NCBI GenBank assembly: GCA_964519415.1
Contig: CAZFJM010000001.1
Span: 34,294 to 86,038, forward strand
DNA from: Candidatus Woesearchaeota archaeon
GTDB taxonomy: Archaea; Nanobdellota; Nanobdellia; Pacearchaeales; GW2011-AR1
Direction of reading: 5' to 3'
Length of the DNA: 51,745 nt
In this document: positions 17,140 through 32,849 of the stretch, piece after piece
How positions within the stretch are numbered: the first letter of the stretch is position 1
How the letters are laid out: the number at the start of each line of letters is the position of its first letter
Notes under the pieces: generated by a model
Told to the model about the DNA's origin: nothing
The model's input: the letters and a program-made list of their open reading frames with translations, nothing else
The model's database searches: none
Made by a program: the position numbers and the translations under genes

Positions 17140-19701
17140 TTAAGGATAATACTGATGAGATTTGTTCTTCTTTCTACTTCTCTCAATCCCTTTTATCCAA
17201 AAATACTCTTCAATTCTCTTACCAAAAAATCTCCAAATAGCGAATGAAATTAATAAAACTATAATAACAGATAAAATTTCCTTCCAATATGAATAACTTA
17301 TATCCTCTATTTTTTCTTCAGTCTTAACTTCATTTGAAACTTCTGTTTTATTAGTTACTGGAACTTCTGCAACTTTAGGAACTATTTCTTGTATGAAAAC
17401 CATCGCCTTAGTTCCATTCATTCCGTCATATCTTGCCTTAACGTCATTAACAGAATCATTATTCAAATCAAATTCATATAAAGTTCCTTTCAGTAAATAA
17501 GCAGTTATAGGATTAGATTGAATTAATACTCTTGCTGTTGTTGAATTAAATCTCTGCATTGTTAATGTATGATTAACAGATCTAACAACAAATCTAATTT
17601 TATCAGTATACCTTAAATTAAAATTATTTCCTGTTGTAGGAAGATATTCATTAGAATAATAAGTTTTTGGATAATAAGTTGAAGAAGTATCTGTTTCTTC
17701 TACAGTCTCAGGAGTAGCATTAACAACGTAAGCTCTTGTATTGCTAGTATTATAATTATGAGTTGATCCATTACCCCAAGAAATCCAAGTATAATTATAA
17801 GTTCCAGTAGTTAAAGTTACAGAAACGTTGTAAACATTTGCAGATAAATTAGTTGCAGTATAATTATTGTTATTAATTGAAAGCAAAACAGTTCCATTTG
17901 TGTTAGCAAGAGTAATATTAAACCAAGCAGTTCCACTTCCAGAAAGAGTCGCATTGTTATCTTGAGGATTTGAAAATTGCGGATAATAAATATCAGAATA
18001 ATTCACAGTATAATTTCTAATAGAAGATACATTATGATTATGAGTTGATCCATTACCCCAGGAATGCCATTTGTAAGAATATGTTCCGTTTGTTGTAAAA
18101 TTATATGAGGCATTGTAAACATTTGCAGATAAATTAGTTGCAGTAATATTAGCTCCGTTTATTTCAAGCAATACCGTACCATTAGTATTCAAAACAGTTA
18201 CATTGAATAAACCTGTTCCAGAATTAGAAAGAGAAGCACTAGTATCATTATAACTTGAAAATTGAGGATATGTTGTATCTTCTTCCGATGTCGGCTGCCA
18301 TTGTAAAATAGGATATTCGTAAGAACCTGTACCCATAACCCAAATATCTGTAAAATCCCAACCAGTAAATGTTGATTGAGTTTGCATTTCAGTAGTATTT
18401 TTTCCATTCGCATCATTACAGCCAGAAGAAGCACTACCAACAAATCCGCACATAACCAATTCTATAGATGTATTAATATCCCAATACGAACCAGAGACTG
18501 TACGATTAGACCAACCAATAAAGCCACCAATATAATCTGTACCCGAAGCAGTTCCTGTTGAATATGAATTAGAAATATCTCCATTGGCGAAACCTACAAA
18601 ACCTCCAGTAAAATTCACTCCAGAAACATTTCCTGTTGCATATGAATCCGAAACTAAACCGAAAACACCCCCAATAAACCCGCCGATATAATTTGTACCA
18701 TTTACATTTCCTGTTGAGTAAGAATTAGAGATATTACCAAATATCTCGCCAATAAAACCACCGATATAATCGTCACCAGAAACATTTCCTGTTGAGTAAG
18801 AATTATAAATTATACCGCTATCATGTGTATAACCGGTAAAACCACCAACAAGGTCTCTTCCAGAAACATTTCCTGTGGAATATGAATAAGAAATATTCCC
18901 ATATGCGCTCCCAGTAAGACCTCCGACGTAATCCTGACCTACACTAGAGATATCTCCGGTTGCATATGAATTAGAAATAGAGGAATTCTCGTCAGCAAAC
19001 CCTACTAATCCACCAATATTAACTGCTCCAATACCTGAAACATCTCCGGTTGCATATGAATTAGAAATAGTTCCCAAACCCCAAACAGTTAAAGGTTCAA
19101 GTGCTCCAACCAAACCACCCAAAGCAGAAGGACTATCTCCATTTGCATTAATAGTTGTCGTTGAATAAGAATTAAAAACACTACCATAAAGATCTCCAAC
19201 AAGGCCACCCACATCATAATTTCCAGTAACACTTCCAGTAGAAAAACAATTGGAAATAGTTTCGAGATCAAATTCGCCCACCAACCCCCCGACATAACTA
19301 CCACCAGTAATATTAATATTTAATAATCCTAAATCTGAAATATTTCCCACAGCAAAACCAAACAACCCAACATAATCAGCAGAATCATTATTGATGTATA
19401 AATTAGAAATTGTTTTATTATTTCCTTGAAAAGTACCTTCAAAACCATTACCAGAATAATCTGCAATAGGCACAAATCCAGCTCCTGTTTGAAACGCTTC
19501 ACATCCAGCAGCAGACATATTAATATTATTACCCAAAGAATAATTTGCAGTTAAATCATTTCTCGTCTCATTTAACTCGGTACAATTAGTAATATTATAA
19601 GGATTCAAAAAACTACCATCACCGCCGCTGAAAGCACTAGTCAAACCAGTTGTAAAAAATAAAACTAATACGAAAACTAATAAACACCACTCTCTTTTCA
19701 T
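17140..19701 (-). CDS. Secreted, C-terminally membrane-anchored GLUG-repeat surface protein
   Basis: 853 aa. Signal peptide LLVFVLVLFFTTGLTSA. About ten repeats of the type SNSY[AS]TG-V-G---[YI][VI]GG[LF][VIT]G (GLUG motif), ending in SGSYWDINTS...FTGWDFTDIW. Two ~95-aa repeated beta domains, a Thr/Glu-rich stalk, TM ILSVIIVLLISFAIWRFF and a basic tail. Many N-x-S/T sequons. Confidence 0.8.
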   Translation of the reverse strand: MKREWCLLVFVLVLFFTTGLTSAFSGGDGSFLNPYNITNCTELNETRNDLTANYSLGNNINMSAAGCEAFQTGAGFVPIADYSGNGFEGTFQGNNKTISNLYINNDSADYVGLFGFAVGNISDLGLLNINITGGSYVGGLVGEFDLETISNCFSTGSVTGNYDVGGLVGDLYGSVFNSYSTTTINANGDSPSALGGLVGALEPLTVWGLGTISNSYATGDVSGIGAVNIGGLVGFADENSSISNSYATGDISSVGQDYVGGLTGSAYGNISYSYSTGNVSGRDLVGGFTGYTHDSGIIYNSYSTGNVSGDDYIGGFIGEIFGNISNSYSTGNVNGTNYIGGFIGGVFGLVSDSYATGNVSGVNFTGGFVGFANGDISNSYSTGTASGTDYIGGFIGWSNRTVSGSYWDINTSIELVMCGFVGSASSGCNDANGKNTTEMQTQSTFTGWDFTDIWVMGTGSYEYPILQWQPTSEEDTTYPQFSSYNDTSASLSNSGTGLFNVTVLNTNGTVLLEINGANITATNLSANVYNASYNFTTNGTYSYKWHSWGNGSTHNHNVSSIRNYTVNYSDIYYPQFSNPQDNNATLSGSGTAWFNITLANTNGTVLLSINNNNYTATNLSANVYNVSVTLTTGTYNYTWISWGNGSTHNYNTSNTRAYVVNATPETVEETDTSSTYYPKTYYSNEYLPTTGNNFNLRYTDKIRFVVRSVNHTLTMQRFNSTTARVLIQSNPITAYLLKGTLYEFDLNNDSVNDVKARYDGMNGTKAMVFIQEIVPKVAEVPVTNKTEVSNEVKTEEKIEDISYSYWKEILSVIIVLLISFAIWRFFGKRIEEYFWIKGIERSRKKNKSHQYYP
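17706..18273 (-). repeat. Tandem duplication of a ~95-aa domain inside the GLUG protein
   Basis: YPQFSSYNDTSASLSNSGTGLFNVTVLNTNGTVLLEINGANITATNLSANVYN...WHSWGNGSTHNHN versus YPQFSNPQDNNATLSGSGTAWFNITLANTNGTVLLSINNNNYTATNLSANVYN...WISWGNGSTHNYN. Coordinates were converted from aa positions and are approximate. Confidence 0.65.
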
Positions 19702-19743: not shown

Positions 19744-21222
19744 TTAAACCTCTGAAAAAACTTCTTGTTCTGGATAAACAATTACGCCTTTAGAAGTAAT
19801 TTGCATTGCAACAATCTTTTTCTGATGTGCTGCGCCTCTTAACTTTAAAATCTCAATTGCATTCTCTCTAATATTTCCATGCTTCAAAGAATAAAGAACA
19901 ACAACACCATCTGCAAGGAATTCTTCTACTCCTGTCTGTGAAAATATAGTTGGAACCTGTTCAGTCTCAGTAATCAAAAATGAAGTTGCACCTGTCTTCT
20001 CTAAGAATCTAAATAACTGTTCAATATAAATCCTATAACTATCATCCTTTCCTGTAAAAGCAGAAGCAATAGCAGTTAAAGAATCAATAACTAAAAAATC
20101 GGGCTTAGCATAGTCTTTAGGCAATAAAACAGGATCAACATCAATCAACAACTCGCCTTTTTGCTTAGCCAAAAGAGCATCAACATTTCTAGTAATATCA
20201 AATGGATTCATTCTCATAATCTTTAATTTTCCTTTCTTAATCAATTCACGAGGATTCCAACCGAAACCTTCCATATGCTGAACAAGCTTTTCTTCATTTT
20301 CTTCTAAAGTCATATACAAACACCGATTACCTTCATTAGCTTTATTGACTAACGTTTGTAAACAAAAAATTGTCTTACCACTACCTGCGCCGCCCGCAAC
20401 AATAACAGAGTTCCCAACTGGCAAACCTTGTAACAATAACTCATCAAAACCCTCAACACCCGTAAAAGTATACTTAGTAGGATTTTTCTTAATGTCTAAA
20501 TAAGGAACCTTTGTCAAAGGACTTCTTTGCTCACCAATTAATTTTTCTCTAACTTTATCGGCAATATTTGAAATAGCACTTTCCTTTTTATTCTCTTTTT
20601 TAGGTAAACTGACTAAAGGCAGATCATCACTAACAGAAATCTTTTTCTTTGAAAGTTTTAATTCTGCCCAAATTTCTTTACTATAATCTTTACCTATTAA
20701 TTTTTTACTCTGGGCGTATTGATGGAAACCCTGATCTTCACCCAACATATGTTTTATCAACCAATCAGCCAAATAATTTCTAAGCTCCGTAAGCATTCCA
20801 GAAACATCACCAGTTAAAGTAACTTGGTTTTTTTCTCCATACACTTTTTTAACAAGTCTATTTTTGAAATCAATAAAATAAACAACCAGACTCTGATGAA
20901 CTTTTTGATGTTTTTTAAAACCAGGATATTTTATTTTTCGCATATATGCTTCTTCATATCCAAAATGTTCCGTAACATAAGACTCTAAAAAATGTAAAAC
21001 TTCTCTAATTTTATTTAGATCTTCACCTTCATGAGAAACACTAAGCAATAAATTAACATTCTTTACAAGATTTTGATGTTGCGAATCAATATTCTTTTCT
21101 TCTACAGACATATTCTTAGCCCATTGAATAGGCTTAGACAAATCCATTTTTACCTGGCTACTAGTCAACTTAACCTTCTTACTAGCAGCTTTCTTTGTAA
21201 CTTTTTTTTTCTTAACAACCAT
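19744..21222 (-). CDS. Bacteriohemerythrin domain fused to a single KaiC/RecA-like ATPase domain
   Basis: 492 aa. Lys-rich N-terminal tail. The hemerythrin region has IQWAKNMSVEEKNIDSQHQNLV, LESYVTEHFGYEEAYMRKIKYPGFKKHQKVHQSL and LADWLIKHMLGEDQGF (H, HxxxE, HxxxH, HxxxxD ligand pattern). The KaiC-like domain has FTGVEGFDELLLQGLPVGNSVIVAGGAGSGKT (Walker A), LYMTLEE and DFLVIDSLT (Walker B). Confidence 0.8.
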   Translation of the reverse strand: MVVKKKKVTKKAASKKVKLTSSQVKMDLSKPIQWAKNMSVEEKNIDSQHQNLVKNVNLLLSVSHEGEDLNKIREVLHFLESYVTEHFGYEEAYMRKIKYPGFKKHQKVHQSLVVYFIDFKNRLVKKVYGEKNQVTLTGDVSGMLTELRNYLADWLIKHMLGEDQGFHQYAQSKKLIGKDYSKEIWAELKLSKKKISVSDDLPLVSLPKKENKKESAISNIADKVREKLIGEQRSPLTKVPYLDIKKNPTKYTFTGVEGFDELLLQGLPVGNSVIVAGGAGSGKTIFCLQTLVNKANEGNRCLYMTLEENEEKLVQHMEGFGWNPRELIKKGKLKIMRMNPFDITRNVDALLAKQKGELLIDVDPVLLPKDYAKPDFLVIDSLTAIASAFTGKDDSYRIYIEQLFRFLEKTGATSFLITETEQVPTIFSQTGVEEFLADGVVVLYSLKHGNIRENAIEILKLRGAAHQKKIVAMQITSKGVIVYPEQEVFSEV

Positions 21223-21566
21223 TATTTCCTCTTCTTTACAATATTTTTAATTTTATTTTCTACAACTTCAAAGTTTTCAAAATTCTTAAACATAAAATAC
21301 AAACCAATAAATAAAAAAACACTTATGACTGTAGGTAAAATAATTCTGTCAGTATAAGATAGCCATCCGCCAAGATTACCAATAAGAGAGAACTCTATAA
21401 GTAAAGCTGTTACTCTTCTGAAAGTCATAAGGATTAAAGCAAAAGTCAAAGCAAGCCACCCCTTATTTAGTCTATTGAAAGAAAAAATCTTATAAGAATA
21501 ATAGACTGCAACTGCTTGAACAATAATTTGAAATACTGCAAAAAAAGAAGAAATAGTGAAAATCAT
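21222..21566 (-). CDS. Small 3-TM membrane protein, paralog 3 of 3 (C-terminal NFENFEVVE motif)
   Basis: 114 aa. YYSYKIFSFNRLNKGWLAL after TM1, FKNFENFEVVENK plus a Lys-rich tail. 4-nt overlap upstream and 1-nt overlap with the hemerythrin-KaiC start. Confidence 0.6.
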   Translation of the reverse strand: MIFTISSFFAVFQIIVQAVAVYYSYKIFSFNRLNKGWLALTFALILMTFRRVTALLIEFSLIGNLGGWLSYTDRIILPTVISVFLFIGLYFMFKNFENFEVVENKIKNIVKKRK

Positions 21567-21913
21567 TTTTTAGTTACCTTCCCATTAATTTTACCTTTAA
21601 CTTTTTTTTCTACAACTTCAAAATTTTCAAAATTTCTCAACATAGAACTGAAACCTATAATGAAACAAACACTATTTGCAATTCTCAATAAAGGATCATA
21701 AATATACCACAATGTGAAAAAAGAAGGAAAGAAACCATTACTTTGCAACAAAGAAGAAACTCTTAAAATAACAATAAAAATAAAACCCAATACAATGAAC
21801 AACCACGACTTATCCAACCTATCAAAAGAATAAATTCTATAAACTAAATAAGAAATATATATAGAGAAAATAAAAGTACTTGCCCAAAGAATAGATTCTA
21901 TACTGAAAATCAT
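21563..21913 (-). CDS. Small 3-TM membrane protein, paralog 2 of 3
   Basis: 116 aa. YLVYRIYSFDRLDKSWLF, LRNFENFEVVEKK plus a Lys-rich tail. 4-nt overlaps on both sides. Confidence 0.6.
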   Translation of the reverse strand: MIFSIESILWASTFIFSIYISYLVYRIYSFDRLDKSWLFIVLGFIFIVILRVSSLLQSNGFFPSFFTLWYIYDPLLRIANSVCFIIGFSSMLRNFENFEVVEKKVKGKINGKVTKK

Positions 21914-22245
21914 TTTTTACTTAACCTCTTTTTTATTTTAGATTTTAGATTAAAACTAACAAGCTCAAAATTTTCAAAATTATTTAACATAGACCATAAA
22001 CCAATAAAAATTAGAAGACTTATAAAGAGCATAACAGCTCTATCGAAAACAATATTTAATACATCTCCAGAATAATCATAATATAATTGAACCAATCGTC
22101 TTAATGCCTGTAACAAAAATGCTGCAACTATTGCAAGCCATCCTTTTGAAAGACGATTAAACTTATAAATCTTATAACTTAACCAAGCAGCAGCTAACTG
22201 AAGAACGAATGCAAGACCATCAAGTGCTAAAACAAACCAATTCAT
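21910..22245 (-). CDS. Small 3-TM membrane protein, paralog 1 of 3
   Basis: 111 aa. WLSYKIYKFNRLSKGWLA, LNNFENFELVSFN plus a Lys-rich tail. 4-nt overlaps on both sides. Confidence 0.6.
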   Translation of the reverse strand: MNWFVLALDGLAFVLQLAAAWLSYKIYKFNRLSKGWLAIVAAFLLQALRRLVQLYYDYSGDVLNIVFDRAVMLFISLLIFIGLWSMLNNFENFELVSFNLKSKIKKRLSKK

Positions 22246-22712
22246 TTTTTCTCAATTTTATCCGAAGATTGTTTAATTAAAGACATTAAATTCTCATTCA
22301 CTCCTTCATTCGGAAGAATAAAAATCAAATCTGCACTCCATTCGTGAGATCTAGATAATATAAAAGAAAAAAACTTAATCAAAATACTAGAGTCATTCTT
22401 AATAGCTAAATTAGTGATAGTATCAAAAACAATAGTAGCTTTCCCTTTGAAAGATTGCTGAGCTTGATTAATTGCAATGCTTATAGAAGTCAAGTTTTCT
22501 GCAGGCAAATATACAACATCATTAGAAGTAGAATCAGAAATAGTATCTAAGAAAAGACATTGTTTGCTTTTACAAATCTTATTAGTTTTCTCTTTAACAA
22601 TAGAATACGGTTTAGAAGAAAGAACTGAAATAATATTACCTTTCAAACTACTTATAACTCCGAAGAAGTTCTTATCAAGATTCTCAGATTTAGATAAAAT
22701 TAATTTAATCAT
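22242..22712 (-). CDS. P-loop-less KaiC/RecA-like-fold candidate, paralog C
   Basis: 156 aa. It aligns by eye with the 175- and 173-aa proteins below: FLDTIS~FVDCIS, NLTSISIAINQ~ALTELAIALN, TIVFDTITNL~LVILDSFSGL, FFSFILSRS~FMNSITARF. No GxxxxGK[ST] is present. The block order resembles a KaiC domain without Walker A; the fold assignment is an inference. Confidence 0.45.
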   Translation of the reverse strand: MIKLILSKSENLDKNFFGVISSLKGNIISVLSSKPYSIVKEKTNKICKSKQCLFLDTISDSTSNDVVYLPAENLTSISIAINQAQQSFKGKATIVFDTITNLAIKNDSSILIKFFSFILSRSHEWSADLIFILPNEGVNENLMSLIKQSSDKIEKK

Positions 22713-23527
22713 TGTTTAGTTGTCTCCATTAATTTAGCTTTAACATAAAAACTTAAAATAATTAGAATATATAATAAAACATATAACAAATCAATAGGAT
22801 GTCCTGTGAAATAAGAACCATTTGCACTAATCTCTGCAAAAATAAAATCATATACTAATCGAATAACTATTCCCAAACTTAAAATAATCCATTGCATACC
22901 ATATTTAACACCGCTGTAAAGCAAAGGCCACACCACATAAATAATCAACAATAAAACAATTAAGTCATAAACAATATACATATCTTGCAAGAAATGAGTA
23001 AAATCAAAACTACCCTCTGCTAAGTCCTCACTAACATCATAGTAAATCAAAAAACAACTTAGAAGAATACCAATTGCAAGAGCTACAAAAACCCCGTTCT
23101 CGTTTGATCTAAATCCTATCTTTGCAAAATATACTACTGAGATAATTAGGAAAAAATAACCTATTGCCCAAGATAAGTCTGGAAGAGATCCTAGTGGTAT
23201 TTTTTGACCGAATAAAGTCTCATAAACAAACCAAAGAATATCTCCAAATAAGAAGAAAAGAACGAACAACATAAAAAAGAGAGTAGCTTTTTTCTCTCTA
23301 GGAAAAGTCTCTGGAATCTTCTTATAAATTAACCAACTAGCTACGAAACAAATTAAAGCAAATAAAATTAAAAATAAATTAGAAAAAATATTATGTAAGT
23401 AGATAGAATCATGAAAAAATTTTCCAAAAATAAAAACTGCTTGAGTAATAAAAAGTATAATTGAAATGATAAACAATCTTAAAAAACACTTACTACAAAA
23501 TCCGGGTTTTGCTACTTTTTTCACCAT
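22709..23527 (-). CDS. Polytopic (about 7 TM) membrane protein, possible sensor or scaffold
   Basis: 272 aa, almost entirely hydrophobic helices with short loops. 4-nt overlap with the downstream KaiC-like paralog C. Confidence 0.55.
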   Translation of the reverse strand: MVKKVAKPGFCSKCFLRLFIISIILFITQAVFIFGKFFHDSIYLHNIFSNLFLILFALICFVASWLIYKKIPETFPREKKATLFFMLFVLFFLFGDILWFVYETLFGQKIPLGSLPDLSWAIGYFFLIISVVYFAKIGFRSNENGVFVALAIGILLSCFLIYYDVSEDLAEGSFDFTHFLQDMYIVYDLIVLLLIIYVVWPLLYSGVKYGMQWIILSLGIVIRLVYDFIFAEISANGSYFTGHPIDLLYVLLYILIILSFYVKAKLMETTKQ

Positions 23528-23565
23528 CTCAAATTATATAGACAATTAATCTTTTTAAATCTTTA

Positions 23566-24093
23566 CTAAATAGTAATAGTCTTATCCGAAAATAAAGACA
23601 TATCTGAAATCAATTCTTTTTTAGCTTCTCCAACAACCAAACAAATAGATTTTAAAGAATTCTTACGAAATCTTGCAGTAATACTATTCATAAACCTAAA
23701 AGTTATGAAAGGATCGTTATAATATGTCAAACCTGAAAAGCTGTCTAAAATAACTAATTCTACATCCTTTGGGAGACCATTTAATGCAATTGCCAATTCA
23801 GTTAAAGCTTTGGGAGAGCTAATATAATTACACTGTTTTGAAGGAACCTGTTCCATTGAAGAAGCAGAAATGCAATCAACAAAATAAAATTTTGAAGAGT
23901 CAATATTTTTTTCAACAAATTTTCTAATCCAAAAAGAACAAGGTTTATTTACAGTAACAATACAAATTTTTTTAAAACTTTTTTTTAAATCAGAACAAAT
24001 ATTAAGAACTGTTTCTTCAGGACCATCGCTCTTACAAACCAACACAACACTTTGATTCTCTTTCAAAACTTTCTTCAAATCAACAGATGCCAT
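23566..24093 (-). CDS. P-loop-less KaiC/RecA-like-fold candidate, paralog B
   Basis: 175 aa. CIVTVNKP..., FYFVDCISASS, SKQCNYISSPKALTELAIALN, LVILDSFSGLTYYND, FMNSITARFRK, ICLVV. No Walker A. Its start abuts the stop of the receiver gene with no gap. Confidence 0.5.
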   Translation of the reverse strand: MASVDLKKVLKENQSVVLVCKSDGPEETVLNICSDLKKSFKKICIVTVNKPCSFWIRKFVEKNIDSSKFYFVDCISASSMEQVPSKQCNYISSPKALTELAIALNGLPKDVELVILDSFSGLTYYNDPFITFRFMNSITARFRKNSLKSICLVVGEAKKELISDMSLFSDKTITI

Positions 24094-24462
24094 TTATGCT
24101 AGAAGTTTCTTCAACCTCCGTTTAAAATCGTCAATATCTACGATAGGTTTTTGGAAGTAATCCAAAACTTTTAACTTTTTAATAGCAGTTGTTCCTTCAG
24201 ACCCTAGTTGTATAGCCGTCAAAAAAGCAACAGGAGTATTTTTTAATTTAGAATCTGCTCTTATTTTTTCAAGAACTTCTCTACCAGACATCTGAGGCAT
24301 CATAATATCTAATAAAACCAAATCAAACTTTTCTTTATTTAAAGCCTTAAGAGCATCAAGCCCACCAGATGCAATTTTAGAAGAATATCCCATACCCTCT
24401 ACGAGCATCTTAACAGATGCAGTAATATCTTCCTCATCATCAACAATCAAAATTTTTTTCAT
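24094..24462 (-). CDS. CheY-like response-regulator receiver, stand-alone (paralog 2)
   Basis: MKKILIVDDEEDI..., DLVLLDIMMPQMSGREVLEKIR, ...TAIQ..., K-P. No output domain. The track ORF extends to 24492, but ATG 24462 (MKKILIVDD) parallels the paralog start MVKKVLIVDD and removes the 26-nt overlap. Confidence 0.85.
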   Translation of the reverse strand: MKKILIVDDEEDITASVKMLVEGMGYSSKIASGGLDALKALNKEKFDLVLLDIMMPQMSGREVLEKIRADSKLKNTPVAFLTAIQLGSEGTTAIKKLKVLDYFQKPIVDIDDFKRRLKKLLA

Positions 24463-24466
24463 AGTA

Positions 24467-24988
24467 CTAAATAATTTCAACTTTGTCAGCAAACAAAGCC
24501 AAATCCTCCATAATTTGCTTATCAGTATCGTGAAACAATAAATAAACTGCTCTAGTTTTTGTACTTCTTATCTTAGACATTAAACTATTCAATAATTGTA
24601 ATGTAGAAACAACATCATTAAAAGACAATAAACCAGTGATATTATCGAAAACAACCAAATCAAACTTTGGAAGATGATCATCAATAGCTATAGCCAAATC
24701 AACAAGAGATTTTGGAGAAGATAAATATAAACACTGCTTAGAAGATTTCTCAGCCATCAATAAACTAGAAGAAATACAATCAATAAAATACCATTTTGAG
24801 AAATCAACACCTTCGCCTTTCAATCTATCGGCTAGAACAGAATAAGATTTGTTTACTGTAACATATAAAACTCTTGTTTTTTTCGGAATTGACTTAAGAA
24901 AATCAAAAGTAAATTCTACCGGATTGGTATCTCTACATAAAAATACGGTATTTTTATTTTTCTTTATATAAGAATTAACGTCTATCAT
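24467..24988 (-). CDS. P-loop-less KaiC/RecA-like-fold candidate, paralog A
   Basis: 173 aa. VLYVTVNKS, WYFIDCISSS, SKQCLYLSSPKSLVDLAIAID, LVVFDNITGLLSFND, LLNSLMSKIR, VYLLF. No Walker A. 1-nt overlap with the upstream receiver gene. Confidence 0.5.
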   Translation of the reverse strand: MIDVNSYIKKNKNTVFLCRDTNPVEFTFDFLKSIPKKTRVLYVTVNKSYSVLADRLKGEGVDFSKWYFIDCISSSLLMAEKSSKQCLYLSSPKSLVDLAIAIDDHLPKFDLVVFDNITGLLSFNDVVSTLQLLNSLMSKIRSTKTRAVYLLFHDTDKQIMEDLALFADKVEII

Positions 24989-25359
24989 TAGGAAAGTATC
25001 CTCTTAATTTTTGTTTTAAATTCGTTCAAGTCGGTAATTGGTTTTTGAAAATATTCAACAGGTTTTAATTTTTTTACAGAATCTTTACCTTCTTCACTTA
25101 ATTGAACAACAGATAAAAATGCAACCTTTTGTTTCTTCATCTTTGAATCTGCTCTTATTTTTTCAAGAACTTCCCTACCAGACATCTGAGGCATTAAAAT
25201 ATCTAATAAAACCAAATCAAACTTTTCTTTTTTAAGTATATCTAATGCTGCTACGCCGTTATTAACTACTTTAGAACTAAACCCCATTCCATCTATTAGC
25301 ATTTTTACAGAAGAAGCAATATCTGCTTCATCATCAACAATCAGTACTTTCTTCACCAT
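24988..25359 (-). CDS. CheY-like response-regulator receiver, stand-alone (paralog 1)
   Basis: 123 aa. MVKKVLIVDDEADI, DLVLLDILMPQMSGREVLEKIRADSK, conserved K-P near the C-terminus. GAGGAA Shine-Dalgarno-like sequence just upstream. Confidence 0.85.
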   Translation of the reverse strand: MVKKVLIVDDEADIASSVKMLIDGMGFSSKVVNNGVAALDILKKEKFDLVLLDILMPQMSGREVLEKIRADSKMKKQKVAFLSVVQLSEEGKDSVKKLKPVEYFQKPITDLNEFKTKIKRILS

Positions 25360-25461
25360 TTTCCTCTTTTTATTTCCCTTTTGAAAAGGGTTCTTGTGCC
25401 CTCGCCGGGTACCATCTCTTAATTAATAACATATAAAGATTATATAAACCTTTTGAAAGAT

Positions 25462-27915
25462 TTATTTTTCCTTTAGTTCAGCCTCCAATTTAGCAATTTT
25501 TTTCTTTAATTCGACCATCTTCAATTCTCTATTAATTGCAAACTTATTAAATTTCTCAGCTTCCTCTGCTTGAACTTTTTCTAATTTTACTTTCTCTAAT
25601 TCTTCTTGAATCTTTTTTCTTTCAGAAATATCTAAGAAACAACCAATAATTCCAGCAATACTTCCATCTTTATTATAAAATACATTCTTAGAATAAATAA
25701 CCGGCCTTTCAACACCGTTTTTGTCTTTAATTTTATATTCGTATATTTGTTTAACAGGATTTTTCATCAATTCTAAATCTTTCTCATGATACATCTTTGC
25801 ATGTTCACTTGGCCATAACTCCATAACTGTTTTTCCCTTTATTTGTTCGGCTGTAACACCCATGACCTTTGTAAATTCTTGATTACAGCCCATATATCTT
25901 CCTTTTGAATCCTTATAAAAAGTTGGTAAAGGTATAGAAGAAAGCAAGGCATTTGCAAAATTATTACTTCTAGTTAGCTCTTCTTCAAGTTTTTTACGTT
26001 CAGTTATATCTGTAAATGCAACTACTATTCTATTCGGGGAATTTCTAAAAACAAAAACATCATAAGCTCCGGAGATTTCTCCAGAACTGTATTCAATAGA
26101 GGAGTCATGCCAAGATTTACCAGTTAAAGCTACATTAAGATAGGCCTTGGGAATTTTTGTATTTTTCAAACCAGGGAATGCTTGCTCAAGAGTTTTACCT
26201 AAAAATTTACTATGATCTATACCTATTGTTTTATCTGCACTAGGATTTGCCCCCATAAAGATTAAATTATTCTTTGAATCTAATTCATAAAGATACATAC
26301 TTATAGGGCTAAATTCAAAAATAGATCTAAACTTGTCCCCACTTTCTTTTATTTGTTCTTCTGCTTTTTTACGATCAGTAATGTCTATATTAGTACCAAC
26401 CATACGTATCGCCTTTCCATTTTTATCAAAGAAAGTCTGTGAATTAGCTTGGATATGTCTTATTTCCCCGGTTTTTGACATTCTGATCCTAAATTCAGGA
26501 CAATACTCTCCTTTCCCATTTATTGATGCCTGAAGCTCTTTCCATACACGAAGTCTATCTTCTTCAATAATCCACTTGCTCCACTCACCTGCGCCGCCTT
26601 TAAAGCCTCCAGGAGAAATACCATACATCACAGAGATATTATCGTCCCAGATTAAATTATCTTTAACAATATCCCAATCCCAAATACCAATATGTGCAGC
26701 CCTAGTCGCAATTTTAAGTCTTTCAGAATATTCTTCTACTTCCAACTCTGCTTTTATAATTTCATCAACATTTATAATAACACTAACAACCTGCTTTAAC
26801 TTTCCATTTTCAAAAACAGGATTAGCAGAATGAGAAATCCAATAAACTTTTTTATCTTTTCCAATAACTCTGTATCTAAAATTCTTAAAAGATTTACCCT
26901 TCAATACCATTGAAAGATGTTCAAAAATAGTCTTCCTATCTTCTGGATGGAAAATATCTTTACTTTTACCAACAAGATCTTCAGCCGGCCATCCAAAAAC
27001 ATCTATAGAGCTCGGACTTAAATAAGAAATAGTTTTATCCGGCAAGGTAAGCATCATAGTTGCCTTAGAGTTCTCAGAAATAAGTTTATACTTTTCTTCA
27101 CTTTCTTTTAATTCTTCATCTGCTTTCTTTTTTTTGCTAATATCCCTACAAATACTTATTATTGCCTTACTACTGTCAAAATTAATAAGTCTTGCATTAA
27201 CTTCCACAGGAATTTCTTTTCCAGACTTTGTAATATGTGCTGTTTCGAATATGGAACTTCCTTCTTTGAATACTTCTTTAATTCTAAGCGGAACATTTTT
27301 TGCAAATTTAGGAGAATCTACTTTTGTAGGAGATAACTGCAATAATTCTTTTTTTGTATAACCTAGTTTTTTACAAGCAGTATCATTAACTTCTAAAATT
27401 TTTCCATCTAAACTATGAATAAAAATAGAATCATTAGTACTATCAAATATAACTTTATACTTATTTTCACTTTCTTTCAATTTTTCTTCAGACATTCTTA
27501 ATTGAGTAACATCCCTATTACTTGCTCTAATTCCTAGATATTTACCTTTACTATCAAAAACTGGTTGACACCAATGATTAATATGTCCTATTTTTCCATC
27601 TTTCCTAATAATCCTAAAATTAACTTCTGCAGGTTTTTTATTAGAGTATACTTTCTTCTCATGATCTAAAAAGATTTTTCTATCCTCTGGGAAAATTATT
27701 CTATAAAGAAGAGGATCATCTTTCAAAAATTCTTCTCGAGAATAACCCGTTATACGTTTACAAGAAGGAGATGAATAAAGAAATTCTTTGTCAGGGCCCA
27801 TCCAATATTCCCAATCATAAGTATTGTCTGCAACAATTTTATACTTATCTTCGCTCTCTTTCAATTTCTCGGTAAGCTCTTCCCCACCCTTTTTTTTCAT
27901 ATTATTATCAATCAT
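25462..27915 (-). CDS. Multi-PAS (about six PAS/PAC) signalling protein with a C-terminal coiled coil and no recognisable output domain
   Basis: 817 aa. Six units are each introduced by a linker such as LKESEDKYK, LKESENKYK, LKESEEKYK, EEYSERLK, IKESGDKFR or EELTRSNNF, and are followed by PAC-like ...DIT[EDQ]RK.. endings. No H-box, HATPase, GGDEF or HTH seen. Confidence 0.8.
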   Translation of the reverse strand: MIDNNMKKKGGEELTEKLKESEDKYKIVADNTYDWEYWMGPDKEFLYSSPSCKRITGYSREEFLKDDPLLYRIIFPEDRKIFLDHEKKVYSNKKPAEVNFRIIRKDGKIGHINHWCQPVFDSKGKYLGIRASNRDVTQLRMSEEKLKESENKYKVIFDSTNDSIFIHSLDGKILEVNDTACKKLGYTKKELLQLSPTKVDSPKFAKNVPLRIKEVFKEGSSIFETAHITKSGKEIPVEVNARLINFDSSKAIISICRDISKKKKADEELKESEEKYKLISENSKATMMLTLPDKTISYLSPSSIDVFGWPAEDLVGKSKDIFHPEDRKTIFEHLSMVLKGKSFKNFRYRVIGKDKKVYWISHSANPVFENGKLKQVVSVIINVDEIIKAELEVEEYSERLKIATRAAHIGIWDWDIVKDNLIWDDNISVMYGISPGGFKGGAGEWSKWIIEEDRLRVWKELQASINGKGEYCPEFRIRMSKTGEIRHIQANSQTFFDKNGKAIRMVGTNIDITDRKKAEEQIKESGDKFRSIFEFSPISMYLYELDSKNNLIFMGANPSADKTIGIDHSKFLGKTLEQAFPGLKNTKIPKAYLNVALTGKSWHDSSIEYSSGEISGAYDVFVFRNSPNRIVVAFTDITERKKLEEELTRSNNFANALLSSIPLPTFYKDSKGRYMGCNQEFTKVMGVTAEQIKGKTVMELWPSEHAKMYHEKDLELMKNPVKQIYEYKIKDKNGVERPVIYSKNVFYNKDGSIAGIIGCFLDISERKKIQEELEKVKLEKVQAEEAEKFNKFAINRELKMVELKKKIAKLEAELKEK

Positions 27916-27938
27916 CTCAAATATTTAAATTATGCGAT

Positions 27939-29591
27939 TTAACGCTTATTACCTCCAAAATGTGATTTTCTAGGTAAACTAAAATAAAATACAGAACCTT
28001 TGCCAGGTTCACTTTGCACACCAATCTTCCCGTCATGAGCTTCAATAATTCCTTTACAAATTGCCAAACCCAAACCAGTTCCCTTTTGTTTTAAAGTATA
28101 TGATGCAACAACCTGTGAGAACGGCTGAAACAAAGTATTAATTTTATCTTTTGAAATTCCAATACCAGTATCAATAACCTTAACTAAAACCTTATCTGAA
28201 TTTTCTTGAGCTTCAATAGTTATTGAACCGCCCTCAGGAGTAAACTTTATAGCATTATTTAACAAATTATTAACAACCTGTCCAATTCTTTTAACATCTA
28301 TTAAAAGAGAATGCAATTGAGGGAGTTTAACAGATATACTAATATTTTTTTGTTTAGCAAGTGACTCATTGTTAGAAACAACTTGTCTAATTATATCAGC
28401 AACATTTGCTCTAATTGGGAAAATCTTCAAATTCTTAGATTGAATAACTGAAATATCAAGAACATCTCCTATTAATTGGTTAAGTGTTCTCATATTTCTA
28501 ACAATTAAATCAATACTCTTTTTTTGTTCAGCAGTAAGCTTCCCAAAATCACCTTCCTGTAACATTTGTGCCTGGATTAAAATTGGAGTTAAAGGAGTCT
28601 TAAGTTCATGAGTAGTAAATGATAAGAAATTATTTTTAAGTTTCTCTAAAGCTTTTAATTGGTGATATGCTTCATCAAGTTTCCCTTTTGACTCTTCTAT
28701 GTCTTCGAGAATATTAAGCGTTGCAATCTTTGCTTGATTTGCTTGACGAGTTCTTCTCTCCAAATCAAGTTGAGTATAGTATAACTCTCTTGTTCTTTCT
28801 CTAACTTTTTTTTCTAAATCTTCATGAGCTTCCTGTAATTGTTCGGCCATCTTATTGAAAGCAATCCCTAAAACACCAAATTCATCATCTGATTTTATAT
28901 TTGTTCTAACTTTAAAATTTCCTTTTTCTATTTGTTCAACTGATTCCCTAAGAGAAGTAATTGGAGAAGTGACATTATTTGAAATAAAAACCGCTGCTAC
29001 AAAACCAAAGAACAAGAATAATACTAAAAATAAAAGATCTGTTTTAAGAAGATTCTTTTCTCTAATAATTAATTCTTCATTTGTATAATAAAAAACCAAA
29101 AAACCTACTTTTTTATTTTCAATTAAAACTGGAACAGATACGACGAAATAACGATCTTTTTCAAAAAAATAAACATCCTCTCTTAAAACAAAAGAAAAAA
29201 GATCATCAGAAGAAAGACCTAAAAGCTCTCTAGGAAAAACACTATTCGTTTCAGTTAAAAGAATATTACCTGAAGAATCTATAAAATCAACTTCATCTAA
29301 ATTTGTAAACTTATCCAAAGTAGCTTTCAAAATAATTTTACCCTCAGATAAAACAAAAACATCTACATAACCATTCTTCTGTTCAAAATTATCAAAAGAA
29401 GACACTCTTTTGTTCAGTGCAAAAGTAAAATCTGCAGAAACAGTGTAAGCCCTATCCACCATATTACCTAATAAATAGGAACTAGTCTGATTATACTGAT
29501 TTATAAATGAAATTGCTTGTAAAAGTAAAACCAATAGAAAAATAAAAAAAAGAAGTTTATTACGTAAAGAATAAAAGCTTTTACGAGGCAT
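27939..29591 (-). CDS. Sensor histidine kinase (TM - extracytoplasmic sensor - TM - HAMP - HisKA - HATPase_c)
   Basis: 550 aa. Two TM helices flank a ~150-aa outer domain. HAMP: ITSLRESVEQIEKGNF...DDEFGVLGIAFNKMAEQL. H-box: FLSFTTHELKTPLT. N-box: NLLNNAIKFTPEGG. G-boxes: DTGIGI and GTGLGLAICKGIIEAHDGKI. Confidence 0.9.
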   Translation of the reverse strand: MPRKSFYSLRNKLLFFIFLLVLLLQAISFINQYNQTSSYLLGNMVDRAYTVSADFTFALNKRVSSFDNFEQKNGYVDVFVLSEGKIILKATLDKFTNLDEVDFIDSSGNILLTETNSVFPRELLGLSSDDLFSFVLREDVYFFEKDRYFVVSVPVLIENKKVGFLVFYYTNEELIIREKNLLKTDLLFLVLFLFFGFVAAVFISNNVTSPITSLRESVEQIEKGNFKVRTNIKSDDEFGVLGIAFNKMAEQLQEAHEDLEKKVRERTRELYYTQLDLERRTRQANQAKIATLNILEDIEESKGKLDEAYHQLKALEKLKNNFLSFTTHELKTPLTPILIQAQMLQEGDFGKLTAEQKKSIDLIVRNMRTLNQLIGDVLDISVIQSKNLKIFPIRANVADIIRQVVSNNESLAKQKNISISVKLPQLHSLLIDVKRIGQVVNNLLNNAIKFTPEGGSITIEAQENSDKVLVKVIDTGIGISKDKINTLFQPFSQVVASYTLKQKGTGLGLAICKGIIEAHDGKIGVQSEPGKGSVFYFSLPRKSHFGGNKR

Positions 29592-29592
29592 T

Positions 29593-30585
29593 TTAATCTA
29601 AGAAATACCCCGCATTTTCTTTAGTAACAATAATACCTGGAATTAATTTTTCAGATTTAACCATTTTATTATCTAGATAATCAAGAACTGTTTCTATACC
29701 TTCACGAGCCATCTGCTTAATAGGTTGAGCAACTGTTGCAGAAATTCTTCCACCATTTGCAATCTCTAAGAATACTTCTTGTAAACCATCAAAACCAACT
29801 AAAATAATATCCTTTCTATTATTTAACTCGGCAGCCCTCATAGCACTTAAAATACCAGGATCTGTACAACTAAATATTGCAGTAATGTTATTTGGTTTGG
29901 ATAATTCTTCACTTGCAAAAAGATAAGCTTTCTCTGCTTGCCAATCGGTATAATAAACTATTACTTGCATACCTGCACTCTCTGCTTTCTCTTTTACCCC
30001 GGTCTCTCTTGCAATACTATTTGGATGAGTTTTTTCACCGCATAAAATTAGAACAGTTCCAGAAGCATTAGTAGCCTTTACAATATAATCTCCCGCAAGA
30101 CGAGCACTTTCTAAATTGTCGGTAGCAATTAAACTAACAATCGCAGGACTTTTAACTGCAGTATCAATTGCAACAACAGGAATGTGTGCTTCATAAGCCC
30201 TGTCTAAAACTGTCATTAAAGATTGAGGAGAATTTGCTCCAATAATAATCCCACCAACCTTTTGATCTATTGCAAGATTTAAAGAAGCTATTTGCTCTTC
30301 AACAGAAGCAGTTTCAGGAGTTAAGTCCAAATAAGTTATTTTTCTTTCAGAAGCAGCCATCTCAGAAAATTTACCCATAGCAGTCCAAAAAGGTTGTTGT
30401 TCTCTTGCAAACCCTATATAGGCAATTATTTTATAAGAAGAAGTTGCAATAGAGCCGTCTTTAATATCTAATTTCAACGAATTTGGAACACTAAAATAAA
30501 TTTGAAAATAAAAATATCCAACAAAGAGTATAACAGAAACAAATATCAGTACAATATAAATCCAGTTATGACTCTTACCCATCAT
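29593..30585 (-). CDS. Membrane-anchored periplasmic-binding-protein (PBP type 1, sugar-binding-like) domain protein
   Basis: N-terminal TM WIYIVLIFVSVILFVGYFYF, then a RbsB/LacI-type PBP fold pattern (GGIIIGANSPQ, IPVVAIDT, TAIFSCTDPGILSAMRA, LVGFDG, ATVAQ). Its stop is 1 nt from the kinase start. The track start at 30588 is a GTG; ATG at 30585 is preferred. Confidence 0.7.
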   Translation of the reverse strand: MMGKSHNWIYIVLIFVSVILFVGYFYFQIYFSVPNSLKLDIKDGSIATSSYKIIAYIGFAREQQPFWTAMGKFSEMAASERKITYLDLTPETASVEEQIASLNLAIDQKVGGIIIGANSPQSLMTVLDRAYEAHIPVVAIDTAVKSPAIVSLIATDNLESARLAGDYIVKATNASGTVLILCGEKTHPNSIARETGVKEKAESAGMQVIVYYTDWQAEKAYLFASEELSKPNNITAIFSCTDPGILSAMRAAELNNRKDIILVGFDGLQEVFLEIANGGRISATVAQPIKQMAREGIETVLDYLDNKMVKSEKLIPGIIVTKENAGYFLD

Positions 30586-30633
30586 CACATCTCTTTGATA
30601 AACTAAGGATTAATATATATTTAAACCTTGCTC

Positions 30634-30672: not shown

Positions 30673-31035
30673 TTAAGCTAAAGCATATCTTGCAGTTTCA
30701 AAGAAATTATGCTTTATCTTTTTGCACTCATTCTTTGCCAACTTAAATTCTTTCTTGCACTGAGCTAAGTCAGTTTTATAGTCCTTACTACAGGTTTTCC
30801 TGTCGGAAGTACTATTCTTACAAGAAAAATACGTATCCTTCACTGAACGATAACAGTCATTCTTAACAACTGCATTCTGTGAAACACACTGTCCATAAGT
30901 AATGTTCTTTGCTTCTTTTACAGTAGCATTCATATCGGTAGAATTCTCTTCGGACTTTGCAGCCAAAACAAAAGAAAACATCAATACAAGCGCAAAACTT
31001 GCAATAAATGCAAATAACACCTTTTTAGTTTCCAT
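30673..31035 (-). CDS. Small secreted Cys-rich, Lys-rich protein
   Basis: 120 aa. Signal peptide LFAFIASFALVLMFSFVLAA and six Cys in the mature part. Own TATA-like element (31056..31067) lies 21-32 nt upstream. Confidence 0.55.
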   Translation of the reverse strand: METKKVLFAFIASFALVLMFSFVLAAKSEENSTDMNATVKEAKNITYGQCVSQNAVVKNDCYRSVKDTYFSCKNSTSDRKTCSKDYKTDLAQCKKEFKLAKNECKKIKHNFFETARYALA

Positions 31036-31075: not shown

Positions 31076-31495
31076 TTAAACTGCTTTAATTTTTTGTCCA
31101 AATAAATATAAGAAATTTTCAAATATTTTCTTTTGCTCTGCAGGGGTTAAATCTTTATCCAACATAGGATAGAACTTTTTATCTTCCAAAGCAATATGCT
31201 CTCTCATTAGCTTTTCGTACTTTTTAGCAGCAGAAGGATCTGTATTCATCGTAGATAAATATCCTCTTAAAGTTTCATGCTGTTCTAAAATATCTTTAAG
31301 TAACTTAAAATCTTTTTTACCCTCATAAAAAATCATTATAGCTTGTTCTTCAGCAGAAGCATGTTTGCTCTGAGAATCTCTTAATAATTCAAAAGCACCT
31401 TTCTTACCTTTAACAAAATCATCCAACAATTTGATCATCTTTCCGTGCTCAAGTTTCATCTTGACAGAAATTAAATCTCCTTTTACATCACCCAT
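31076..31495 (-). CDS. Hemerythrin HHE cation-binding domain protein
   Basis: 139 aa. Spaced H/E pairs: LEHGKM, SKHASAEEQ, EQHETLRGYL, REHIALEDKKFYPML. Own TATA-like element (31516..31526) lies 21-31 nt upstream. Confidence 0.6.
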   Translation of the reverse strand: MGDVKGDLISVKMKLEHGKMIKLLDDFVKGKKGAFELLRDSQSKHASAEEQAIMIFYEGKKDFKLLKDILEQHETLRGYLSTMNTDPSAAKKYEKLMREHIALEDKKFYPMLDKDLTPAEQKKIFENFLYLFGQKIKAV

Positions 31496-32019: not shown

Positions 32020-32364
32020 TTAAGGCCAAATTAAAACTTTGACTATCAAAGCTAAAACAATAGAAACAAATAAAGTCCAAATAGAATTAACTAAGACTTT
32101 AATGTACCTCTCACGAACAATAATTTCATCTCTATCAACCCATAATTCTCGGATAATACTCATAAATCCAAAAGCTGAAGAAACAAATAAAATAACTCCT
32201 AAAACAAATATTATTTCATAAAATAAAGAAACAATATTAAAATAACTTCCATTATTAAAAATGTCTCCTAACTGTTTTAAATAAGTATATCTTGCAGCTC
32301 GACCACCTATTACGAATGCAAATACCGAAAACATTATTTTCTTCTGAAGTGGTGTTATTTTCAT
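32020..32364 (-). CDS. Small membrane protein (3 TM), unknown function
   Basis: 114 aa with three clear hydrophobic helices. No recognisable motif. Confidence 0.45.
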   Translation of the reverse strand: MKITPLQKKIMFSVFAFVIGGRAARYTYLKQLGDIFNNGSYFNIVSLFYEIIFVLGVILFVSSAFGFMSIIRELWVDRDEIIVRERYIKVLVNSIWTLFVSIVLALIVKVLIWP

Positions 32365-32409
32365 AGAAATAAAGAGTTACCTTATTTTAAAAGCATTATT
32401 GTGATGAAC

Positions 32410-32847
32410 TTAAATTTTCTTTTTCATAATATATGCATGTTTAGAATATCCATTTTTCCCATAAAACTCAAGCGCATGCTCATTCTTACATCTAACAGTC
32501 AATCTAAACTCCTTAACTTTTTTATATTTCTCCTTAATAAAATCCTCGACAAATACCATCATCTCTCGACCTATACCTTTTTTATGAAATTTAGGCTCAA
32601 GCAAAACATGTTCAATTTCCACAGAATCCCCGTACGGATTTAAAACATAACCTATACACCCCACCAACTCTTTATCAATAAAATAACCAAAAACTTTTCC
32701 TTCCCTGAAAGTAAACTCAAAATATTCTTTTATTGACGCAGAATCCATCTTACCTAAAGAATCTTCAATGGGTTTGAAAGCAGAAATATTAAGTTTAACG
32801 AGTTCGGGAAGATAGTCCTTAGACAACTCTTTAATCATAGTATTCAA
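32410..32847 (-). CDS. GNAT-family N-acetyltransferase
   Basis: 145 aa. VEIEHVLLEPKFHKKGIGREMM gives the acetyl-CoA-binding Q/R-x-x-G-x-G/A motif in the expected position. ALEFYGKNGY follows. Confidence 0.75.
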   Translation of the reverse strand: MNTMIKELSKDYLPELVKLNISAFKPIEDSLGKMDSASIKEYFEFTFREGKVFGYFIDKELVGCIGYVLNPYGDSVEIEHVLLEPKFHKKGIGREMMVFVEDFIKEKYKKVKEFRLTVRCKNEHALEFYGKNGYSKHAYIMKKKI

Positions 32848-32849
32848 AG

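Follow-up and report, generated by a model that had tools for sequence, protein, structure and literature searches.

A cluster in which a bacterial-type two-component system lies beside a KaiC-type ATPase was analyzed in a 51,745-nt stretch of DNA from a Candidatus Woesearchaeota archaeon (contig CAZFJM010000001.1, positions 34,294 to 86,038; G+C content, ~31%), referred to here as the window. The 13 consecutive genes at window positions 19744-30588 encode, in order, a homologue of type I periplasmic binding proteins (PBP), a HAMP histidine kinase, a PAS-only protein, two successive pairs of a CheY-type receiver (REC) and an inactivated KaiC-like protein (iKaiC), a polytopic membrane protein, a third iKaiC, three membrane mini-proteins, and a hemerythrin-KaiC ATPase (Hr-KaiC). 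On balance, we favor the view that this is a hybrid cluster, in which a bacterial-type two-component front end is coupled through iKaiC adaptors to an archaeal KaiC-type ATPase hub. The neighborhood data are best read as a convergence of phosphotransfer and hemerythrin-based sensing on the KaiC ATPase, for which the inactive paralogs would serve as adaptors. All coordinates are window positions unless a related locus (L number) is named, and all window genes described as part of the cluster or its downstream flank are on the minus strand.

The 13 genes (counted as 14 in a preliminary description made from the sequence alone) are tightly packed, as that description had noted. Six overlaps were found, of 1 nt at 24988 and 21222 and of 4 nt at 22709-22712, 22242-22245, 21910-21913, and 21563-21566. 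The remaining junctions are gaps of 0 to 38 nt, with the sole exception of 102 nt (25360-25461) between the PAS and first REC genes. Domain searches confirmed nearly all of the component calls made previously. Likewise, the reported lack of CheA, CheW, methyl-accepting chemotaxis protein (MCP), KaiA, KaiB, cyclase, and DNA-binding domains stood, as none was detected in the cluster proteins with Pfam and NCBIfam; KaiA and KaiB matches were also absent from the small flanking open reading frames (ORFs). A chemotaxis pathway was rejected for want of CheA, CheW, and MCP domains in the cluster, and an anti-phage defense system was rejected because none of the ten cluster proteins scanned matched a PADLOC model at an E value of ≤1e-3. 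The genes do share one orientation, but this is not special to the cluster, since all ORFs of at least 100 aa between positions 173 and 33830 lie on the minus strand, except one nested in a P-type ATPase gene. The boundaries initially given to the cluster are therefore arbitrary, and synteny in relatives extends it upstream to a 120-aa protein gene (30673..31035) and a stand-alone hemerythrin gene (31076..31495).

The predicted center of the system is Hr-KaiC (19744..21222; 492 aa). Its C-terminal part matches the KaiC family PF06745 with 173.4 bits (cutoff, 26.6) at residues 254 to 486. The N-terminal domain matches hemerythrin models from Pfam (E value, 5.8e-12) and NCBIfam (TIGR02481, 93.3 versus a cutoff of 51.75; NF033749, 88.5 versus 84) and carries the iron-ligand residues H49, H86-E90, H105/H109, and H158-D163, which follow the pattern H/HxxxE/H/HxxxxD. 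The ATPase domain contains a Walker A motif (GGAGSGKT at residue 277), the TLEE catalytic pair (residue 305), and a Walker B motif (VIDS at residue 378). As proposed in the preliminary description, this is the single Walker A motif of the cluster. The nearest solved structures are the KaiC CI domain (E value, 5e-48) and the sensory hemerythrin domain DcrH-Hr (E value, 1e-15). DcrH is a signaling protein to which this hemerythrin domain contributes O2 sensing. The N-terminal domain of Hr-KaiC resembles DcrH-Hr in having all di-iron ligand motifs, but here its fusion partner is a KaiC-type ATPase and not a methyl-accepting chemotaxis protein.

Affinity to the CI domain and retention of the EE pair might suggest a KaiC-based timer, clock, or hourglass related to cyanobacterial KaiABC. 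However, Hr-KaiC has a single RecA-like domain and no CI-CII tandem, and it scores far below the cutoffs of the circ_KaiC models TIGR02655 (109 versus 546 bits) and NF006799 (135 versus 408). In addition, KaiA and KaiB are missing, and sensor domains rather than clock partners dominate the neighborhood. A circadian-clock identity was rejected on these grounds, and we regard any timer function as highly improbable. As is proposed for the window cluster, the cyanobacterial system with SasA/CikA-RpaA has a KaiC ATPase that communicates with a histidine kinase/response regulator pathway, and receiver-like (pseudo-receiver) domains contact the KaiC system. It differs in that the clock drives the kinase and its KaiC has two domains. 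A RadA/RadB recombinase identity was excluded because KaiC models score far above Rad models. As judged from these profile matches, Hr-KaiC is a member of the KaiC-like superfamily outside the clock KaiCs.

The pairing of hemerythrin with KaiC recurs in relatives. Fusions of the two were found in 18 ORFs (~14 once repeat copies of the same region were removed), and hemerythrin is encoded by a separate gene immediately upstream of KaiC in ~7 distinct loci. The existence of both fused and adjacent forms (fusion/fission) is evidence of joint function. A winged helix takes the place of hemerythrin in other close homologs with KaiC domain identities of 62 to 72% (HTH_IclR, 38 bits in L060; weaker matches in L043, L080, and L005), and the output in these sister lineages could be transcription. 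L005 encodes a 771-aa protein (L005 positions 584-2899) and a separate 410-aa KaiC (3187-4419) where the Hr-KaiC gene would be expected. The N terminus of the 771-aa protein is 45% identical to the hemerythrin domain (BLAST), yet it gave no Pfam match, and the 410-aa KaiC has a weak winged-helix-like N terminus. This arrangement points to recent domain shuffling at the locus.

The three iKaiC genes encode small, soluble, stand-alone proteins of 173 aa (iKaiC_A; 24467..24988), 175 aa (iKaiC_B; 23566..24093), and 156 aa (iKaiC_C; 22242..22712). These P-loop-less proteins had been called KaiC-like, and the present data agree. iKaiC_A matches DUF7504 with 31.8 bits (cutoff, 27), and its AlphaFold2 model (predicted local distance difference test [pLDDT] score, 86.3; pTM, 0.85) has as its best Foldseek matches in the PDB FlaH/ArlH (4yds), PH0284 (2dr3), PH0186, KaiC, and RadA, all with a probability of 1.00 and TMq values of up to 0.73 (PH0284); the range for FlaH, PH0284, and KaiC was 0.6 to 0.73. 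iKaiC_B is 35% identical to iKaiC_A, with a below-threshold DUF7504 match (16.6 bits) and a weak FlaH match. iKaiC_C is the most divergent and matches the Pfam families DUF835 (18.3 versus 33.1) and DUF7090 (16.9 versus 27) only below their cutoffs; its family aligns with that of iKaiC_A in hhalign (probability, 99.7%; E value, 3e-25). Furthermore, relatives have sub-threshold matches to the KaiC Pfam family, and a 236-aa relative from L071 bridges these families by matching KaiC (105 bits), DUF7504, DUF7090, and DUF835 together. As direct profile comparison with KaiC was not significant, the relationship rests on the predicted fold, the Pfam cross-matches, and the bridging sequences. The iKaiCs are thus predicted to have a RecA/KaiC fold, and their link to KaiC is structural and transitive. 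None of the three has a Walker A motif, and the catalytic EE pair is also lost; TVNK is found in iKaiC at the position of the KaiC TLEE motif, as read from segments paired in a local hhalign alignment.

Two of the iKaiC genes are coupled to receiver genes. REC1 (24988..25359; Response_reg E value, 5.8e-19) is a single-domain CheY-type receiver with a DD pair at residues 9 and 10, the acceptor Asp in LVLLDILMP, and FLS and QKP motifs, and its gene overlaps that of iKaiC_A by 1 nt. The REC2 ORF (24094..24492; Response_reg E value, 3.2e-21) begins at a TTG codon, although an ATG at 24462 (MKKILIVDD) is the likelier start and leaves a 4-nt gap at its upstream junction. REC1 and REC2 are 64% identical, and in both the DD acidic pocket, the acceptor Asp in LLD(I/M)MP, FL(S/T), and QKP are intact, as read from the sequences. 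Of 62 nonredundant iKaiC genes, 19 are immediately preceded by a REC gene, and 13 directly adjoin KaiC. No ORF fusing REC to iKaiC was found in 98 loci, and in the window the two are likewise encoded by separate genes.

The kinase that would serve these receivers (27939..29591) has two transmembrane (TM) segments (residues ~8-34 and ~180-209) followed by HAMP, HisKA, and HATPase_c domains, with the H-box HELKTP at residue 328. The motifs of a two-component system are thus present on both sides, as an H-box and ATPase domain in the kinase and a complete pocket in each receiver. One nucleotide away from the kinase gene is that of the membrane-anchored PBP homolog (29593..30588; Peripla_BP_4 E value, 3.8e-48; TM segment at residues 5 to 34), which we propose as an extracellular co-sensor of the kinase; in relatives, a dCache_1 kinase replaces the PBP-kinase pair. 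The PAS-only protein (25462..27915; 817 aa) has PAS-family Pfam matches only, each to several stretches, and no output domain. By length it would hold about six PAS units and a C-terminal coiled coil, and it has no TM segment, as for a cytoplasmic protein. PAS-only proteins of 658 and 933 aa are encoded at the same position in L011 and L014. Upstream of the PBP gene, the 120-aa protein has an N-terminal TM or signal segment (residues 3 to 29), a Cys-rich region, and only sub-threshold Pfam matches. The stand-alone hemerythrin is a 139-aa protein with HxxxE and HxxxxD motifs (Pfam Hemerythrin E value, 8e-8). A 136-aa hemerythrin is encoded at the syntenic position ahead of the kinase in L011 and L014, and L014 also has a 120-aa gene at the position of its window counterpart.

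The gene neighborhood is conserved in relatives, where homologs are co-localized rather than scattered. A metagenome scan anchored on Hr-KaiC yielded 80 loci with KaiC domains 49 to 85% identical to that of the window, 43 of which have at least 6 kb of flanking sequence and were used for flank counts. iKaiC genes were present in 31 of these 43 loci, kinases in 23, REC genes in 19, and PAS proteins in 11; iKaiC, REC, and kinase genes occurred together in 18, and 35 had at least one of iKaiC, REC, kinase, and PAS. Genes for the polytopic protein or mini-proteins were found in none of the 43 loci, nor in any of the 80. According to these counts, the widespread unit consists of KaiC, iKaiC, REC, and kinase, with PAS and hemerythrin as optional parts, and the polytopic/iKaiC_C/mini-protein block is a lineage-specific addition.

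Comparison of individual loci gives the same picture. In L014 the whole cluster is present, with synteny running from the patatin gene, hemerythrin, 120-aa protein, kinase, and PAS genes through Hr-KaiC; it differs in having a dCache_1 kinase instead of the PBP and HAMP kinase, and two mini-proteins. At the same genomic position, L011 and L023 keep the kinase-PAS-(REC-iKaiC)x2 block and lack the polytopic and mini-protein genes. There, three more REC genes (five in total in L011), an iKaiC, a second kinase, and a dCache protein replace the membrane module, and hemerythrin and KaiC are separate adjacent genes. L013 has only the two-component/REC/iKaiC block (kinase-PAS-REC-iKaiC-REC-iKaiC), beyond which lie unrelated genes of opposite orientation. 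Only the core of polytopic protein, iKaiC_C, one or two mini-proteins, and Hr-KaiC was found in L001/L006, L004, and L008. The cluster, previously described as a single "supercluster," is therefore better seen as a composite of two separable modules, both of which are carried by several relatives. Downstream of the Hr-KaiC core, L008 also encodes (positions 4648-6463) a 425-aa dCache_3-HAMP membrane protein without a kinase or other output domain, together with a fourth type of iKaiC (178 aa), which suggests that HAMP sensors may act on iKaiC proteins directly, with no kinase in between.

The separability of the modules bears on whether they are functionally connected. They could be independent neighbors, that is, a two-component pathway with its own REC-iKaiC targets and a separate membrane KaiC module, with no signal flow between them. 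The occurrence of one block in L013 and of the other in L001 and L004 would fit this explanation, as would the co-directionality of the whole 34-kb stretch, in which strand and spacing do not define a unit. A promoter-like element ahead of REC1 points in the same direction. In the 102-nt region between PAS and REC1 (25360..25461), a B recognition element (BRE)/TATA-like element, AAAG(A/G)TTTATATA, was recognized, and it is kept in the regions upstream of REC1 in four loci (window, 25360-25461; L014, 9480-9625; L011, 9550-9625; L013, 9380-9625). It lies ~25 nt before the ancestral ATG. In L011 and L013 the spacing to the ATG is also ~25 nt, which suggests a leaderless transcript. In the window and L014, the ancestral GAGATGGTA start is followed by an extra insert of 50 to 80 nt that includes a small hairpin (CCCTTTT/AAAAGGG), and the ATG in use is further downstream. 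The element is a probable internal promoter for a unit running from REC1 to Hr-KaiC.

However, kinase, REC, and iKaiC genes occur beside close KaiC homologs in 18 of the 43 loci, and these loci vary in gene order and in their sensors (dCache_1, dCache_3, and PBP). In L011, which has no membrane module, the two-component/REC/iKaiC block still abuts hemerythrin and KaiC. Moreover, the iKaiCs of the two modules are homologous and would plausibly share the one active KaiC partner. We therefore think it rather unlikely that the modules are merely neighbors.

Several observations nonetheless weigh against a single hub. Modules that occur separately (L013 versus L001, L004, and L008) need not form one pathway, and the element before REC1 suggests that transcription is divided into two or more units, one for PBP-kinase-PAS and another from REC1 to Hr-KaiC. 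No recognizable output domain is encoded in the cluster. Alignments of the iKaiC_A and iKaiC_C families with the KaiC domain were not significant (hhalign probability, <2%; shallow alignments). The most informative relatives are fairly close (65 to 85% nucleotide identity), and some of the synteny may reflect common descent and not selection. Finally, everything in the proposal beyond gene co-occurrence is inferred.

With these points in mind, the coupled hub might operate as follows. Kinase activity would be set by an extracellular ligand bound to the PBP (or to dCache in relatives) and by cytoplasmic signals through the PAS-only protein, and the kinase would phosphorylate both stand-alone receivers, REC1 and REC2. 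Each REC with its translationally coupled iKaiC would act as a split REC-iKaiC response regulator, in which phosphorylation alters the docking of iKaiC onto, or its incorporation into, the Hr-KaiC oligomer. Through its di-iron hemerythrin domain, KaiC could sense O2, redox, or iron directly and adjust its ATPase or autokinase state. iKaiC_C might tether the hub to the membrane through the polytopic protein and a hetero-oligomer of the three mini-proteins, and these membrane proteins would then be a further input or an effector. The cluster products may form a membrane-associated assembly, as the preliminary description suggested.

Both membrane families of the cluster are uncharacterized. The polytopic protein (22709..23527; 272 aa), described before as a 7TM protein, has eight helices in its AlphaFold2 model (pLDDT score, 85.7). 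It belongs to an orphan family without Pfam, NCBIfam, or PADLOC matches, and only 12 homologs of 213 to 281 aa were detected, none of them fused to another domain. Conserved motifs include GD..W, PD..W, and YYTGHPxDLLY, and in our reading of the alignment these charged and aromatic motifs suggest a 4+4 internal repeat. The model has no significant fold match in the PDB (best Foldseek E value, 0.09). A rhodopsin or G-protein-coupled receptor identity was rejected, as the likeness is that of a generic helical bundle (TMq, ≤0.53; E value, ≥0.09).

Mini-protein 1 (21910..22245; 111 aa), mini-protein 2 (21563..21913; 116 aa), and mini-protein 3 (21222..21566; 114 aa) are 36 to 43% identical, and each has ~3 TM segments and a C-terminal NFENFE tail. 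Mini-protein 2 is the most divergent (36 to 37% identical to the other two), and the gene of mini-protein 3 overlaps that of Hr-KaiC by 1 nt. The NFENFE tail is conserved across the family, as are YKIxxFNRL following TM1, an RR pair, and DR. Homologs of mini-protein 3 are 54 to 100% identical and all 107 to 119 aa long; the one in L005, where two mini-protein genes lie at the contig end and the first is cut by it, is 97% identical. An exhaustive profile search recovered 208 clusters at 50% identity (E value, ≤1e-3), and the best 150 of these are all stand-alone proteins of 63 to 169 aa with no informative fusion. The mini-proteins gave no Pfam or NCBIfam match. One homolog (P0003) has the precomputed label PF28423, which the Pfam copy used here does not contain, and the family may already hold a recent DUF-type Pfam entry. 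Matches in the genome collection all come from metagenome-assembled genomes of "Candidatus Woesearchaeota" or uncultured archaea. Apart from L096 and L098, all loci that extend upstream of the mini-protein genes have an iKaiC_C-type gene directly before a mini-protein gene, and a KaiC-like ATPase is encoded within 10 kb of the mini-protein genes, except in L007. In L098 (positions 9625-10888), three tandem genes for distant paralogs of 127, 137, and 128 aa adjoin genes for a ParA/MinD-type ATPase and a protein of >3100 aa; the KaiC-like ATPase is 7 kb away, and no iKaiC was detected at this locus.

The genes downstream of Hr-KaiC offer candidate targets. A GLUG-repeat protein (17140-19701; 853 aa, TM segments at both ends) is followed by a P-type cation ATPase (14549-17095; 848 aa), a giant immunoglobulin-like (Ig-like) surface protein (5717-14497; 2926 aa; Big_13, Big_3_4, HYR, and NPCBM_assoc domains), and its partner (4860-5720; 286 aa; signal peptide and a single TM segment), whose gene overlaps the giant gene by 4 nt. 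The 2926-aa protein is probably a surface adhesin of the episymbiont. Orthologs of the giant and 286-aa genes lie directly beside the KaiC core in relatives, upstream of it in L001 and downstream in L004, with amino acid identities of 49 to 50% and 36 to 38%, respectively. A homologous giant-protein gene is downstream of the core in L008, and gene orders differ between loci. In L023, the GLUG and P-type ATPase genes follow KaiC in the same order as in the window, and a P-type ATPase gene follows KaiC in L015. It is suggestive only that the genes at 4860-19701 are targets of the cluster, and candidate outputs are the membrane module and the neighboring genes for giant surface proteins.

Such adjacency invites a different account, in which the KaiC core is an ATP-driven membrane machine or regulator for the cell surface (for example, for deploying the giant Ig-like or GLUG surface proteins encoded nearby, for pili, or for host attachment) and the two-component part is a lineage-specific input. 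Adjacency of the giant and 286-aa genes to the core is kept in L001 and L004, and of the giant homolog in L008. Distant mini-protein loci also encode very large proteins (1339 aa in L097 and >3100 aa in L098) and a KaiC-like ATPase within 10 kb, and T2SSE and T2SSF genes lie near the mini-protein locus of L096. In addition, the KaiC-like proteins ArlH and CirA regulate archaellum- or pilus-linked motility via oligomerization or phosphorylation (PMC10983859), and kaiC genes occur in DPANN pilus clusters (PMC9563170). However, the relatives with giant-gene adjacency are closely related, and no secretion or pilus gene is found within the cluster. Giant surface proteins are common in DPANN genomes, where many are encoded, and their proximity may be due to chance. 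As a replacement for the coupled hub, a surface machine of this kind seems to us quite improbable.

A related extension of the hub, which we put forward as speculative and itself unlikely, would make the polytopic protein, mini-proteins, iKaiC_C, and Hr-KaiC a membrane-embedded, ATP-powered device that controls a surface or host-contact apparatus under O2 and two-component input. iKaiC_C would be a stator-like adaptor, and the mini-protein tails would be docking motifs. The controlled apparatus of these DPANN episymbionts would be the adjacent giant adhesin-like proteins, and the device would integrate O2 (through hemerythrin) with an extracellular ligand signal (through the two-component system and REC-iKaiC pairs).

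A NAD salvage/synthesis trio at 708-4569 encodes nicotinate phosphoribosyltransferase, an isochorismatase-family protein (likely a nicotinamidase), and a glutamine-dependent NAD synthetase (CN_hydrolase and NAD_synthase domains). On the other side, 32020-36894 encodes a conserved 114-aa protein, a GNAT acetyltransferase, a patatin-like phospholipase, a beta-CASP/RMMBL ribonuclease, and a Fic/DOC protein. Within this upstream flank, synteny with L011 and L014 was seen for the genes of the patatin, the 114-aa protein, and beta-CASP. The plus-strand ORF nested in the P-type ATPase gene (14526-15071; 181 aa) is almost certainly spurious.

The hub scheme that Makarova, Galperin and Koonin published in mBio in 2017 was reportedly predicted purely by comparative genomics. 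The cluster, which the preliminary description could not assign to any described system, matches this concept of an archaeal KaiC/iKaiC signal-transduction hub (Makarova, Galperin and Koonin 2017, as cited in PMC5847659) and the REC-iKaiC regulators described by Galperin in 2018. In the 2017 hub, as reported, and likewise in the window cluster and its relatives, a single-domain KaiC-like ATPase stands amid paralogs with inactivated ATPase sites, with fusion or neighborhood ties to REC, PAS, HAMP, and Cache sensors and to membrane proteins, and with an optional winged helix-turn-helix domain on the ATPase. The present cluster differs in belonging to DPANN/Woesearchaeota and in having hemerythrin as the input domain fused to KaiC. 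Its iKaiCs are stand-alone proteins of 156 to 175 aa and not DUF835 domains fused to a membrane region, and it includes the 8-TM and NFENFE mini-protein families, which have no match in the Pfam copy used.

Response regulators of the types REC-DUF835(iKaiC), iKaiC-REC, and MEDS-REC are catalogued in Table 2 of Galperin (2018; PMC5847659), and REC-iKaiC fusions are known from Methanomicrobia, Thermoplasmata, Methanosarcinaceae, and Thaumarchaeota (PMC5847659). As in these proteins, the receivers in the window are phospho-accepting and are combined with an inactivated KaiC-like domain that presumably serves as output or adaptor. In contrast, the window partners are encoded by separate genes, translationally coupled across an overlap of 1 nt or a gap of 0 nt, and iKaiC_A, the one iKaiC with a Pfam match above the cutoff, belongs to DUF7504, not to DUF835 or MEDS. 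The REC and iKaiC pairs thus resemble REC-iKaiC regulators as split pairs and are not members of that group by architecture.

Among KaiC-like regulators, ArlH and CirA provide experimental precedents. They are single-domain KaiC-like proteins, and the iKaiC_A model finds its top structural match in ArlH (4yds). Both regulate through nucleotide- or phosphorylation-dependent oligomerization and docking on a partner ATPase (PMC10983859). However, no archaellum or pilus genes are present in the window cluster, the NCBIfam ArlH model scored 44 bits against a cutoff of 215, and the iKaiCs cannot bind ATP through a P-loop. Mutations in CirA and in the two-component response regulator QarA were recovered from the same Haloferax quorum-sensing screen (PMC13464002). 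Full-text literature searches found no paper on hemerythrin with KaiC in archaea and none on DUF7504. In the searchable literature, the Hr-KaiC fusion, the split REC/DUF7504 pairs in DPANN archaea, and the two iKaiC-tied membrane families are without prior description.

To our knowledge, the KaiC-hub hypothesis for archaeal signaling is widely cited and almost untested beyond ArlH and CirA, and the sensing of environment and host by DPANN archaea is poorly understood. The cluster provides a compact, conserved test case and an experimental entry point for this hypothesis, with one kinase, two intact receivers, three putative iKaiC adaptors, and one KaiC predicted to be active, with a built-in O2/iron sensor. 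As all parts are in one place, a few small soluble proteins could suffice to reconstitute the proposed link from the two-component system to KaiC. The related loci also document evolutionary plasticity, as sensors (PBP versus dCache) and KaiC N termini (hemerythrin versus winged helix) are exchanged and hemerythrin and KaiC are fused or split. Furthermore, the NFENFE mini-proteins and the orphan 8-TM protein add two uncharacterized membrane families that are genomically tied to KaiC-type proteins. If the proposed membrane device is real, it would give the KaiC signaling network of archaea a defined effector arm for the first time.

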